Positions 26,386 to 27,546 of a stretch of 49,262 bases of DNA are shown piece by piece (the stretch's first letter is position 1; each line of letters opens with the position of its first letter). The stretch comes from Spirochaetales bacterium (GTDB lineage: Bacteria; Spirochaetota; Spirochaetia; DTKZ01), in assembly GCA_031274005.1 (NCBI GenBank), contig JAISQU010000157.1, positions 1 through 49,262 of the forward strand, given 5' to 3'. The translations under genes and the position numbers were made by a program. The notes beneath the pieces were generated by a model. That model did not search any database and had not been told where the DNA came from. It saw only the letters and a list, made by a program, of their open reading frames with translations.

Positions 26386-26470
26386 GGAGAGGTGTCCGAG
26401 TGGTTGAAGGAGGCGGTCTTGAAAACCGTTGAACCGCAAGGTTCCGGGGGTTCGAATCCCCCCTTCTCCG
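26386..26470 (+). tRNA. tRNA-Ser (anticodon UGA)
   Basis: Manual cloverleaf: acceptor GGAGAGG/CTTCTCC, anticodon stem GCGGT/ACCGT with loop CTTGAAA, long variable arm, T arm GGGGG-TTCGAAT-CCCCC, discriminator G. CCA is not encoded. Confidence 0.9.
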
Positions 26471-26613
26471 AAGGAGAAGGGGGGATTCGAAACGAGCCTT
26501 CGCCGACCGGGAGGGAGGAAAAGGCGGCAGGGATGCCGCCGGCAGAGGGCGAAGGCGGGTCTGCGGGAGCGAACAGGAGGTTCGCGACTGGAGACCGGTT
26601 CCCCCCTTCTCCG
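26471..26613 (+). repeat. tRNA-linked GC-rich structured repeat, copy A (full length)
   Basis: It starts with GGAGAAGGGGGGATTCGAAAC, an inverted copy of the tRNA 3' end. The core has hairpins GGCGGCA-GGGA-TGCCGCC and GCGAAC-AGGAG-GTTCGC. It ends in CCCCCCTTCTCCG, a direct copy of the tRNA-Ser(UGA) 3' end. Confidence 0.7.
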
Positions 26614-26670
26614 CGAAGGCATTCAGCAGCCGTGTGCTTCCTGGTGGTTAAGGTTTAGCAAACCGGTAAT

Positions 26671-26735
26671 GGGGGGGGGGTAGAAACGAGCCCCCGCCGG
26701 CCAGCGGGAGGAAAAGCGCGCGGCAGTTTAGCGTT
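26671..26735 (+). repeat. tRNA-linked repeat, copy D (degraded; begins with a G10 run)
   Basis: G10-TAGAAACGAGCCCCCGCCGGCCAGCGGGAGGAAAAGCGCGCGGCAG aligns to the 5' half of copies A-C. One hairpin arm plus loop is deleted. Confidence 0.55.
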
Positions 26736-26749
26736 ATAGACGACCAATT

Positions 26750-26837
26750 GGAGAGGTGCGAGAGTGGTCGAATCGGGCTCCCTGCTAAGGAGTTGTATCC
26801 CAAAAGGGTACCGGGGGTTCGAATCCCCCCCTCTCCG
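26750..26837 (+). tRNA. tRNA-Ser (anticodon GCU)
   Basis: Acceptor GGAGAGG/CCTCTCC, anticodon stem GCTCC/GGAGT with loop CTGCTAA, long variable arm, T arm GGGGG-TTCGAAT-CCCCC, discriminator G. Confidence 0.9.
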
Positions 26838-26841
26838 TAAA

Positions 26842-26866
26842 ACGGCGTTTGCTGCCGTGTTTTTTT
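26842..26866 (+). terminator. Short hairpin plus T7 run after tRNA-Ser(GCU)
   Basis: ACGGC-GTTTGCT-GCCGT followed by GTTTTTTT. Confidence 0.45.
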
Positions 26867-26900
26867 CGTGTTGGGTTAAGGCTTTAGAAAGCCGGGCAAT

Positions 26901-27030
26901 GGGGGATTCGAAACGAGCCCTCGCCGACCAACGGGAGGAAAAGGCGGCATGGATGCCGCCGGCAGAGGGCGAAGGCGGGTCGGAAGGAGCGAACAGGACG
27001 TTCGCGACTGGAGACCGACCCCCCTCTCCG
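26901..27030 (+). repeat. tRNA-linked GC-rich structured repeat, copy B (full core)
   Basis: Near-identical to copy A over more than 100 nt. Hairpins are GGCGGCA-TGGA-TGCCGCC and GCGAAC-AGGAC-GTTCGC. It ends in CCCCCCTCTCCGTA, which matches the 3' end of tRNA-Ser(GCU) rather than that of tRNA-Ser(UGA). Confidence 0.7.
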
Positions 27031-27033
27031 TAT

Positions 27034-27107
27034 GTGCCCATAGCTCAGTTGGATAGAGTACCAGATTGCGGATCTGGTGGTCGGAGGTTCGAACCCTCTT
27101 GGGCACG
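27034..27107 (+). tRNA. tRNA-Arg (anticodon GCG)
   Basis: Acceptor GTGCCCA/TGGGCAC, D arm GCTC-AGTTGGATA-GAGT, anticodon stem CCAGA/TCTGG with loop TTGCGGA (U33, G37), T arm GGAGG-TTCGAAC-CCTCT, discriminator G. Confidence 0.85.
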
Positions 27108-27114
27108 TTTTTTT

Positions 27115-27202
27115 GGAGAGATGCGAGAGCGGTTGAATCGGGCGGACTCGAAATCCGTTGCGCCGCATTGCGGCGCCGAGGGTTCGAATCCCTCTCTCTC
27201 CG
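27115..27202 (+). tRNA. tRNA-Ser (anticodon CGA)
   Basis: Acceptor GGAGAGA/TCTCTCC, anticodon stem GCGGA/TCCGT with loop CTCGAAA, long variable arm (GCGCCGCATTGCGGCGC), T arm GAGGG-TTCGAAT-CCCTC, discriminator G. Confidence 0.9.
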
Positions 27203-27288
27203 AAGGAGATGGAGGGATTCGAAACGAGCCCTCGCCGACCGGCAGGGAGGAAAAGCGCGCAGGGATGCGCGCGGCAGAGGGCGAAACA
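27203..27288 (+). repeat. tRNA-linked repeat, copy C (3'-truncated)
   Basis: It starts with GGAGATGGAGGGATTCGAAAC, an inverted copy of the preceding tRNA 3' end. It has the same core as A and B, but the hairpin is GCGCGCA-GGGA-TGCGCGC (three compensated pairs). Similarity ends after GAGGGCGAA. Confidence 0.65.
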
Positions 27289-27314
27289 CAGATTTTTTCA
27301 CATGAAAAAATCTG
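27289..27314. terminator. Perfect 12-bp palindromic A/T-flanked hairpin (bidirectional terminator-like)
   Basis: CAGATTTTTTCA-CA-TGAAAAAATCTG. Confidence 0.45.
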
Positions 27315-27317
27315 CCT

Positions 27318-27442
27318 CCCTTGGGTCCGCGCCAGGGATTGCAGCGGAAATCCTTTTTTGCCGCGGAACGCGGCAAAAAAGATTGGAGCGGAAAGCCCGG
27401 TTTTTTGTCCGCCTACGGCGGACAAAAAAGGCGCCCAAAAAG
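27318..27442 (+). repeat. Copy of the dispersed GGGATTGmAG hairpin-repeat family (X1)
   Basis: GCGCCAGGGATTGCAGCGGAAATCC-[TTTTTTGCCGCG-GAA-CGCGGCAAAAAA]-GATTGGAGCGGAAAGCCCGG-[TTTTTTGTCCGCC-TAC-GGCGGACAAAAAA]-GGCGCCCAAA. It aligns with the reverse complement of 49151-49262. Confidence 0.65.
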
Positions 27443-27459
27443 TTGTGTATGTGTGTGTT

Positions 27460-27546
27460 GGAGAGATGTCCGAGAGGCCGAAGGAGCACGCTTGGAAAGT
27501 GTGTGTATCCGTGAGGGTACCGTGGGTTCGAATCCCACTCTCTCCG
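27460..27546 (+). tRNA. tRNA-Ser (anticodon GGA)
   Basis: Acceptor GGAGAGA/TCTCTCC, anticodon stem CACGC/GTGTG with loop TTGGAAA, long variable arm, T arm GTGGG-TTCGAAT-CCCAC, discriminator G. Confidence 0.9.

Follow-up and report, generated by a model that had tools for sequence, protein, structure and literature searches.

The serine tRNA array and its repeats

A metagenomic stretch of 49,262 nucleotides (nt) from an uncultured Spirochaetales bacterium (contig JAISQU010000157.1), referred to as a whole as the window, carries five plus-strand transfer RNA (tRNA) genes across positions 26385–27547, four for serine and one for arginine, on which ARAGORN and Rfam agree. The spacers of this array hold four copies of a repeat that is the subject of this study. 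A preliminary description of the window had located these copies, A to D, and all four were recovered at the same places by a repeat finder, by MAFFT alignment and by a mismatch-tolerant pattern search (Table 1). The repeat finder gives 91% identity between copies A and B over 95 nt. The 17-mer GAAACGAGCCNNCGCCG, common to the copies, occurs four times in the window against 0.31 expected by chance.

The repeats are related to the tRNA genes that precede them. Over its first 19 nt copy A is an exact antisense copy of the final 19 nt of tRNA-Ser(UGA), with a 3-nt loop between the two, so that 26451–26469 and 26473–26491 form an inverted repeat of 100% complementarity. Copy C begins with a corresponding inverted repeat of tRNA-Ser(CGA) (27183–27201 with 27205–27223, 89% complementary). 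At the other end of the element the tRNA sequence returns in the sense direction: the 3' end of copy A has 15 nt in common with the 3' end of tRNA-Ser(UGA), and copy B ends in CCCCCCTCTCCG, which is the 3' end of tRNA-Ser(GCU). The antisense relation of copies A and C, and the tRNA 3'-end repeats at the ends of the copies, had been missed in the preliminary description.

A conserved repeat family

Syntenic loci were gathered through homologues of DnaX, the closest of which are 81–63% identical. All of the syntenic DnaX-linked loci contain the same five-tRNA array, and the number of repeats in it differs. A pattern consisting of the core motifs only was scanned over one genome per species and over metagenomes, and gave 48 genome loci and 44 metagenome loci. 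The genome loci belong nearly all to Spirochaetota, among them Treponema primitia ZAS-10, Treponema sp. TIM-1, Gracilinema caldarium and Breznakiella homolactica RmG30 (complete genome). A few lie outside this phylum, in Deltaproteobacteria/Deferrimicrobiaceae (Desulfobacterota-like) and Omnitrophota metagenome-assembled genomes, and two of the pattern loci (L040 and L050) look like chance matches in coding DNA. A covariance model (R1) was made from a 50-sequence alignment of relatives with the structure written by hand. It matched 102 times in the genome and synteny loci and 76 times in the metagenome loci, in many cases where the search pattern was absent. Copies that score 45 bits or more number 160, in 89 loci, most of them from Spirochaetota. 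Further copies in related spirochaetes, for which a covariance-model search of the relatives had been proposed, do exist, and the element is a conserved family and not local debris.

The core pattern gave no match in viral contigs, and blastn gave none in phage and plasmid collections. As anticipated, no Rfam 15 family matches the repeats. At gathering thresholds the whole window gave only tRNA, signal recognition particle (SRP) RNA and Flavo-1, and when the region 26300–27700 was searched at expectation values (E) up to 10, the repeats were covered only by sub-threshold matches driven by adjacent tRNA sequence. Nine divergent relatives, including the delta and Omnitrophota variants, had no Rfam match at E up to 0.01. 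Rfam ribozyme models did not match in the window region or in these nine relatives, and the Rfam models of the tRNA clan, transfer-messenger RNA (tmRNA), Y RNAs, introns and IS-associated RNAs gave no match. Full-text literature, searched with sequence strings as well, turned up no description of the element, and two Breaker-lab motif surveys, checked for tRNA-linked spirochaete motifs, contained none; this is limited evidence of absence.

The element folds as a covarying three-way junction

The consensus fold is a three-way junction of about 135–145 nt. Helix P1 closes the junction. P2 surrounds a large internal loop made of CGCCGACC, 2–6 variable nt and GGGAGGAAAAG, which is followed by the hairpin P2a. 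P3 contains a purine-rich internal loop (GGA opposite GAC) and bears the hairpin P3a with the loop ACAGGAU. The joining strands CGCCGACC, GGGAGGAAAAG and AGGCGGG are near-invariant throughout the family.

In copy A, P1 pairs 26473–26491 with 26599–26612, P2 pairs GCCUUC (26496–26501) with GAGGGC (26545–26550), the joining strands GCCGACC and GGGAGGAAAAG lie at 26502–26508 and 26513–26523, P2a at 26523–26540, and P3 with P3a at about 26557–26597. The end pairing proposed earlier for this copy, GGAGAAGGGGGGA (26473–26485) with TCCCCCCTTCTCC (26600–26612), is a perfect helix of 13 base pairs (bp), and the fold of copy A has z = −7.4 relative to shuffles. In copy B, P1 pairs GGGGGAUUCG (26901–26910) with a C-run near 27017–27023, and P2 pairs 26917–26922 with 26965–26970; GCCGACC (26923–26929) and GGGAGGAAAAG (26933–26943) follow, and then the hairpin P2a (26943–26960). 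Copy C is without P3 and without the 3' strand of P1. Copy D retains a G-run at the place of P1, GAAACGAGCCCCCGCCGGCC, GGGAGGAAAAG and half of P2a, the remainder being gone. Within the window the P2 helix GCCyUC/GAGGGC has a U.G pair in copy A and C-G in B and C, exactly as had been noted, and the inner hairpin reads GGCGGC/GCCGCC in A and B and GCGCGC/GCGCGC in C, a set of fully compensated changes.

Covariation was counted separately in the genome and synteny set and in the metagenome set, and 31 of the 32 pairs had compensatory changes in each. Standard pairs were formed by 89.7% and 91.9% of the cells, respectively (about 69% after shuffling in both); because the alignments were fitted to the model these percentages are inflated, although the compensatory substitutions in every helix are not created in this way. 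Cells changed on both sides numbered 555 and 483, against 138 and 115 after shuffling, and none of 500 shuffles in either set attained the observed count. When partners were slid by 1–3 columns the highest counts were 121 and 91. RNAalifold found compensatory changes for P2, P2a and P3 already on the plain MAFFT alignment. The single 'pair' that is mostly A.G or G.A lies in the GGA/GAC internal loop. These results place the covariation far above background by both controls in both sets.

The paired columns contain 128 G.U against 59 A.C combinations (72:33 in the genome and synteny set, 56:26 in the metagenome set), an excess that favours the tRNA-sense strand as the folded strand. The view that the repeat is a structured plus-strand element, taken earlier from the U.G pair of copy A, is upheld by the covarying fold, the G.U excess and the co-orientation with tRNAs described below. 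A candidate pseudoknot, CGCC/GGCG, has both strands invariant. An alternative local hairpin, in which the P1 5' strand pairs with J1/2 plus the P2 5' strand, was discarded: it can be formed in 78% of the cells, and its covariation does not exceed that of shuffles.

These data bear on the possibility that the repeats are functionless decaying duplications or tRNA pseudogenes, or that they act on the minus strand as a terminator (P2a followed by CUUUUCC). Copy C is truncated and copy D degraded, as decay would produce, and P2a plus TTTTCC scores as terminator-like. However, conservation of the family extends over three phyla, every helix has compensatory changes, and covariation and distribution already contradict decay. 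Neither ARAGORN nor the Rfam tRNA model calls any element, and 'repaired' constructs are not tRNAs. On the minus strand only 4 U follow the hairpin, and the G.U excess and the strict co-orientation with tRNAs indicate the plus strand. We find this explanation hardly credible.

Elements follow tRNA genes on the same strand

Upstream context was scored for the 160 copies, accepting a tRNA gene within 260 nt either directly or through a chain of copies. A co-oriented tRNA precedes 139 of them and an opposite-strand tRNA none; five have no tRNA, and for 16 the edge of the locus is too near to tell. Copies lie 2–130 nt downstream of the tRNA gene. Seventeen tRNA species are used, dominated by the four serine isoacceptors, the others being Glu(CUC, UUC), Ala(CGC, GGC), Pro(CGG, GGG, UGG), Tyr, Leu(GAG), Arg(GCG), Asn, Asp and Met.

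The element takes its ends from this tRNA. Of 109 full copies, 100 have an exact block of 13 nt or more in common with the 3' end of their own tRNA, and in 89 this block is 17 nt or longer. The copied block, of 18–20 nt, normally runs from T-loop position 56 (C56) to the discriminator; where the tRNA genes of delta-type members encode CCA, as at L052, the CCA is copied too. For its 5' strand P1 has an antisense copy of the segment made up of T-loop and T-stem 3' strand, and this pairs with the 3' copy to complete the helix. P1 accordingly changes with the tRNA: it is AUUCG/CGAAU where the loop is TTCGAAT, GAUGG/CCAUC for the T-stem of tRNA-Tyr, and AUUUG/CAAAU for Pro, Met and a Ser with a TTCAAAT loop. 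A gut-treponeme subfamily associated with Ala and Glu tRNAs (for example L056) copies the entire T-arm, with P1 shifted to match. To our knowledge, a closing helix that is rebuilt from the 3' end of whichever tRNA lies upstream is an undescribed design principle.

Several origins in tRNA sequence were rejected. A core inserted in the T-loop of a duplicated tRNA would leave a direct copy, and where the T-loop is non-palindromic (Pro, Met, Asp) the P1 5' strand is antisense; after tRNA-Pro, with the T-loop TTCAAAT, the element reads ATTTGAA. The element is not itself a tRNA gene or pseudogene, because no copy is called by ARAGORN or the Rfam tRNA model and the P1 5' strand is antisense to the T-arm. 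D-arm-like segments and short hairpins ahead of copies B and D had been taken for a decayed tRNA-Ser. The spacers upstream of B and D are alike, but spacers are not conserved across genomes, and constructs rebuilt from spacer plus P1 were unrecognised by ARAGORN in 34 of 42 cases. Among the eight calls at least one (tRNA-Pro, L020) was a real upstream tRNA inside the 85-nt flank.

P1 rarely extends into the acceptor sequence. Beyond the part derived from the T-stem it continues for at most 1 bp in 54 of 73 full copies and for at least 5 bp in only eight. The acceptor-derived 8-nt tail is single-stranded in most members, yet nearly always identical to the tRNA. The preliminary description had equated the closing helix with the acceptor stem plus T stem, a minihelix of the kind accepted by RNase P; this is correct for copy A with its 13 bp and fails as a feature of the family. 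A related explanation makes the element a decoy or processing signal for RNase P or RNase Z, with P1 mimicking stacked acceptor and T stems and the enzymes cutting the ends of the element. The perfect helix of copy A would suit this role, as would the short forms that begin 2–3 nt past the discriminator (in the window, L001, L003, L053 and L020) and the delta-type members that end in CCA like their tRNAs (L052, L024). Against it stand the shortness of P1 in most copies and the fact that the inner half of P1 is T-loop sequence, so that no T-loop or elbow is presented to the enzymes; the conserved core is left unexplained as well. We regard such a role as very improbable.

Possible alternative pairing with the upstream tRNA

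The sense/antisense/sense layout permits two mutually exclusive folds. The computed minimum-energy fold of tRNA-Ser(UGA) plus copy A (26385–26615) is a swapped structure, in which 19 bp join the 3' half of the tRNA to the 5' strand of copy A and the 3' copy in A takes up the tRNA's 5' acceptor and T strands. The product of this exchange would be a tRNA body with an insert of about 160 nt in its T-loop. The swapped fold keeps a switch model alive without demonstrating it.

According to that model the core would be an aptamer and the element a riboswitch-like device gating tRNA maturation. With P1 formed, the decoy would hold the antisense strand and the tRNA would fold; with P1 open, the antisense strand would block folding or processing of the tRNA 3' half. 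The layout is universal among spirochaete members, and the covarying core, a three-way junction with 31 of 32 pairs supported and near-invariant joining strands, has the character typical of aptamers. Three members (L044, L036 and L047) lie directly ahead of protein genes with a ribosome-binding site just past P1. Consistent placement in a 5' untranslated region before a coherent gene set was not observed, since nearly all copies follow tRNAs, and there is no consistent gene class and no clue to a ligand. Tandem and decayed copies and the variability of slots among close relatives are unlike known riboswitches. The alternative local hairpin does not covary, and invasion by a downstream strand would probably be disfavoured kinetically, as the tRNA folds first in transcription. 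A switch of this kind is in our opinion improbable.

Gain, loss and homogenisation of elements

Occupancy of the slots in the array changes between relatives, from none in L005 through one in L001 and three plus a remnant in L003 to four in the window. The L001 slot orthologous to that of copy C holds an intact copy (L001:4143–4283). Compared with the empty 37-nt spacer of L001, copy A is a clean insertion placed precisely behind the tRNA, the repeated tRNA 3' end marking its boundary, and the spacer sequence continues after it. Comparison of copy D with the empty L001 spacer suggests that this copy is the product of an internal deletion. In long forms (L049, L043) 6–22 nt of the downstream flank of the tRNA can recur past the element, and in tandem arrays the whole unit is repeated at 98–99% identity.

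Copies within a locus resemble each other across slots. In multi-copy loci 33 of 64 copies have their nearest match at another tRNA slot within the locus, as do A and B in the window and copies at 95% identity in L041, and P1 still fits the tRNA of each slot. The copies in L039 have cores that are 93% identical and spacers that are unrelated. The likeness of cores across slots, together with the slot-matched P1 and the unrelated L039 spacers, suggests that cores are copied within genomes or undergo gene conversion.

Around the 89 loci there is no recurrent gene for an integrase, a transposase or a reverse transcriptase, as judged by clustering of open reading frames (ORFs) and Pfam searches of 90 neighbouring ORFs. 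Recurrent neighbours are unrelated housekeeping genes only, and a linked recombinase, reverse transcriptase or RtcB was rejected on these scans. The preliminary description had offered a tRNA-derived miniature inverted-repeat transposable element (MITE) as one possibility. A classical MITE is not supported: the neighbouring genes include no transposase or integrase, the termini vary with the tRNA, the repeated sequence is 18–20 nt of tRNA 3' end and not a short flanking duplication, and 139 of the 144 placeable copies follow a tRNA. For a tRNA-targeting integrative element the expected direct repeat is present, in 100 of 109 copies and in the filled and empty sites of the window and L001; no integrase was found in or near the element.

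The chief rival explanation nevertheless treats the element as mobile DNA: a non-autonomous miniature cassette targeting tRNA 3' ends, folded as single-stranded DNA in the manner of integron attC or CTX phage attP. The P1 hairpin would rebuild the duplex from the T-loop to the 3' end, a recombinase acting in trans would join it with the tRNA gene, and any RNA would be incidental. The T-loop is the classic integrase crossover zone at tRNA att sites, and the insertion is bounded by a direct repeat of the tRNA 3' end that starts in the T-loop. Whole units of flank plus element recur in tandem arrays, long forms repeat the tRNA's downstream flank or terminator after the element, and presence/absence polymorphism, truncated and nested copies and similarity across slots within genomes would all be expected of such a cassette. 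The direct repeats and arrays are well explained by such a cassette. It is less successful with the G.U bias and with loops that are invariant between phyla. Invariant unpaired nucleotides found in several phyla and a 2:1 excess of G.U over A.C suit RNA better than DNA. The lack of a recurrent integrase, transposase or reverse transcriptase also argues against it, as does the absence of the element from the viral contigs, phages and plasmids searched. For the 17 or more tRNA species in use, a matching site-specific enzyme apiece would be required, or else an unknown guided one. Neither the unrelated spacers of L039 nor the 3' ends in L024, which mismatch the local tRNA, are easily accommodated. 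We consider a DNA cassette unlikely.

In L003, at 4280–4301, a lone 'empty' hairpin, GGGGGATTCGAACCGAATCACC, joins the 5' strand of P1 to the 3' strand without a core. It is preceded by a 65-nt flank identical to that of the full copy upstream. Empty hairpins were dismissed as evidence of excision, this being the only one among all loci.

Transcription context

One sigma-70-like promoter stands before the first tRNA gene (Table 1). It is the sole promoter-like site in 26200–27750, and the arrangement in Breznakiella is alike; judged by consensus match, this would imply that the repeats are co-transcribed with the tRNAs from one operon promoter. Strict terminators are rare, occurring between tRNA and element in 4 of 75 cases and downstream, within 66 nt, in 8 of 75. 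The window copies contain no plus-strand intrinsic terminator, and no conserved position-specific or promoter motif was found upstream of P1. An own promoter or own terminator was therefore rejected as the rule. We infer that the usual setting of the element is an internal or trailing spacer of a tRNA precursor.

Divergent members

The delta-type members keep tRNA-derived ends. In three of them (L024, L028 and L052, each on the minus strand; Table 1) a full second core sits inside a more degenerate outer one, between its GCCGACC and GGGAGGAAAAG motifs, which is either self-insertion at a fixed site or domain duplication. The 3' end of the L024 elements, at 632–660 and 84–112 (minus strand), is tRNA-like and terminates in CCA (CAAATCCTCGCATTAAGCCGCCA), and no tRNA of the locus matches it.

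Members ahead of protein genes precede archease-rtcB, a biotin carboxylase, a DctP-family transporter protein and proteins without a Pfam match. The member at archease-rtcB is a weak one from Omnitrophota (L047:4536–4860, minus strand, 35 bits); it has a promoter-like sequence, and archease and an rtcB with an intein lie immediately downstream. This neighbourhood was found in L047 and in no other locus.

Relation to known elements

In imitating the acceptor and T region of a tRNA the element resembles the tRNA-end mimics, such as the tRNA-like domain of tmRNA, YrlA Y RNAs, MALAT1 mascRNA and viral tRNA-like structures. Enzymes that act on tRNAs often excise or bind such mimics, and YrlA is located in rsr-rtcB operons, which may be compared with L047 beside archease-rtcB. 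In the present element, in contrast, the mimic is a literal copy of the last 18–20 nt of the adjacent tRNA, with which an antisense copy pairs; T-loop, D-arm and elbow are lacking, and the acceptor part mostly stays unpaired.

Integrative elements at tRNA genes, including attL/attR-bounded, cis-mobilisable and tandemly accreted ones, likewise have an insert bounded by a tRNA 3'-end repeat that starts in the T-loop, and share the fixed orientation, the tandem arrays and the empty sites in relatives. The unit described here, however, is only 145–260 bp, has no integrase nearby and includes an antisense copy of the site. Its body is a covarying RNA-like fold conserved across phyla, and at least 17 tRNA species are used. 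REP/BIME, Correia and ERIC repeats and integron attC sites are also multi-copy, with inverted termini forming a long stem, stem covariation, truncated copies and variability between strains. Unlike REP- and MITE-type repeats, the element has termini re-tailored to each tRNA and its invariant sequence in the interior, is confined to just after tRNA genes, and has no partner transposase or RAYT-like gene. On the features compared, the element fits neither the tRNA-end mimics, nor the tRNA-targeted integrative elements, nor the REP/MITE-type repeats.

Flavo-1, ROOL and GOLLD RNAs also combine conserved folds and unknown function with positions near tRNA genes, and Flavo-1 occurs in the same array. 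The element has no sequence or model similarity to them, and we know of none among the three that takes its closing helix from a neighbouring tRNA. The bridge RNA of IS110 and the guide sequences of group I and II introns offer an analogy only: in these, too, one RNA has segments matching both target strands, and the antisense segment abuts its target as the group I P1 helix spans the 5' splice site. The element differs in having no recombinase or intron core, in its length of about 140 nt and in that its two segments pair with each other.

A probable structured RNA gene of tRNA operons

We lean moderately towards the interpretation that the repeats are an uncatalogued structured RNA gene of tRNA operons that spreads by recombination at tRNA 3' ends. 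The element would be transcribed from the tRNA operon promoter as a portion of the tRNA precursor, and would be released, or retained as a structured spacer, during processing of the tRNA ends. The conserved core would be its working part, a surface that might bind a protein, a ligand or another RNA, and the tRNA-derived P1 and tail might couple the element to its tRNA in processing or folding. New copies would arise by duplicative recombination through the 18–20 nt of tRNA 3'-end identity, no adjacent recombinase being encoded; this would account for presence and absence of copies, tandem arrays, truncated copies and homogenisation within genomes.

A number of observations weigh against this interpretation. 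Copies that are truncated, degraded or nested, and a turnover as rapid as this, are seen more typically in selfish repeats than in an essential RNA gene, and an identity block of 18–20 nt is short for RecA-type recombination. The 5' arm of L024 is the perfect antisense of the local tRNA-Glu 3' end and its 3' end does not match, a combination not predicted by a simple model of recombination footprints. Some copies are orphans with no tRNA (L033, L044 and L091), some lie before protein genes (L047 and L036), and a minority have strong terminators on both sides (Tyr L076, Met L070 and Asp L064). The usually unpaired acceptor-derived tail means that, on the modelled fold, recognition by RNase P or RNase Z would not be guaranteed, and the near-perfect identity of this tail to the neighbouring tRNA is without a reason at the RNA level. 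That the element is transcribed and processed, and where its RNA would end, is what we infer from genomic position. The search pattern fixed three motifs and so their invariance is partly by construction; the 61 copies without a pattern match have the three motifs mostly intact or one substitution off, and conservation of the motifs is in part freed from this objection, not being solely a by-product of the search.

On a more far-reaching view, pairing with the tRNA would itself be the mechanism, the element being either a small self-propagating RNA or DNA cassette that is poor in recombinase and whose antisense arm chooses the stretch from T-loop to 3' end of a tRNA gene as its integration site, or a switch in which the sense/antisense/sense triplet lets the core control folding and maturation of the upstream tRNA. 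This we hold to be unlikely, with a chance that is nevertheless substantial. If true, tRNA pairing as the mechanism of guided insertion or of maturation gating would be categorically new.

The structured RNA gene that we favour has consequences of its own. A conserved RNA fold, present in many spirochaetes (among them cultured species from termite guts and fresh water) and in two or more further phyla, has gone uncatalogued, and it would add a well-supported orphan RNA class. It raises the questions of how tRNA operon spacers are used, whether tRNA maturation can be gated by a downstream RNA, and by what route such short sequences pass from one tRNA gene to another when no recombinase is encoded. 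Arrays of tRNA genes with these elements will also be hard to assemble. Breznakiella homolactica RmG30, whose array lies at L049:5955–7360 of NZ_CP067089, and Treponema primitia are in culture, and the predictions are directly testable in them.

Table 1. Features of the tRNA array in the window, and nested-core loci elsewhere in the family
Feature	Position	Strand	Support and remarks
Sigma-70-like promoter, TTGACA-17 nt-TATATT	26337–26365	+	11/12 matches, 20 nt before first tRNA; consensus match only
tRNA-Ser(UGA)	26385–26471	+	ARAGORN, Rfam; last 19 nt are the template for both P1 strands of copy A
Copy A, full length	26473–26613	+	Covariance model 128 bits, E 4.5e-31; 'short form' 2 nt past tRNA-Ser(UGA)
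Copy D, degraded 5' fragment	~26668–26735	+	Weak 39-bit model match; repeat finder, alignment, pattern search
tRNA-Ser(GCU)	26749–26838	+	ARAGORN, Rfam; 3' end copied at end of copy B
Weak terminator-like hairpin and T-run	26842–26866	+	In spacer ahead of copy B
Copy B, full length	26901–27030	+	Covariance model 137 bits, E 1.8e-33; 'long form' 62 nt past tRNA-Ser(GCU)
tRNA-Arg(GCG)	27033–27108	+	ARAGORN, Rfam; without an element after it in the window
tRNA-Ser(CGA)	27114–27203	+	ARAGORN, Rfam; 3' end mirrored by 5' end of copy C
Copy C, 3'-truncated after 3' strand of P2	27205–27288	+	Covariance model 74 bits; alignment
Flavo-1 RNA (RF01705)	27326–27406	+	62.9 bits against gathering score of 42; context, outside the repeat family
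tRNA-Ser(GGA)	27459–27547	+	ARAGORN, Rfam; final gene in array
SRP RNA	27568–27666		Downstream of tRNA-Ser(GGA)
dnaX	27705–29339		Follows SRP RNA
Nested-core locus	L024:117–784		
Nested-core locus	L028:4500–4900		
Nested-core locus	L052:200–500		

Other features of the array

Many ORFs of 80–290 amino acids overlap the array of tRNAs and repeats on both strands (26359–27744). Equivalent stop-to-stop ORFs cluster across 29 loci and have no Pfam match. They are translation artefacts, as had been supposed, and their clustering reflects the conserved DNA; annotation pipelines call such spurious ORFs across the elements, and gene callers may annotate them. The four tRNA-Ser genes in the window start at 26385, 26749, 27114 and 27459, at intervals of 364, 365 and 345 nt. 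This spacing is absent from relatives and was set aside as probably a coincidence.

The Flavo-1 RNA of the array stands where the 3' half of copy C is missing, a position suggestive of insertion of, or replacement by, Flavo-1 or its flanks. A second Flavo-1 RNA (RF01705) is present in the window at 49182–49251 on the minus strand, and both lie a short distance upstream of a same-strand tRNA gene, that for Ser(GGA) at 27459 and that for Lys at 48864–48936 (minus strand). The Flavo-1 RNA in the array is flanked by perfect A/T-run palindromes, CAGATTTTTTCA/TGAAAAAATCTG (27289–27314) and TTTTTTGTCCGCC/GGCGGACAAAAAA (27401–27429), which look like bidirectional terminator-type hairpins.

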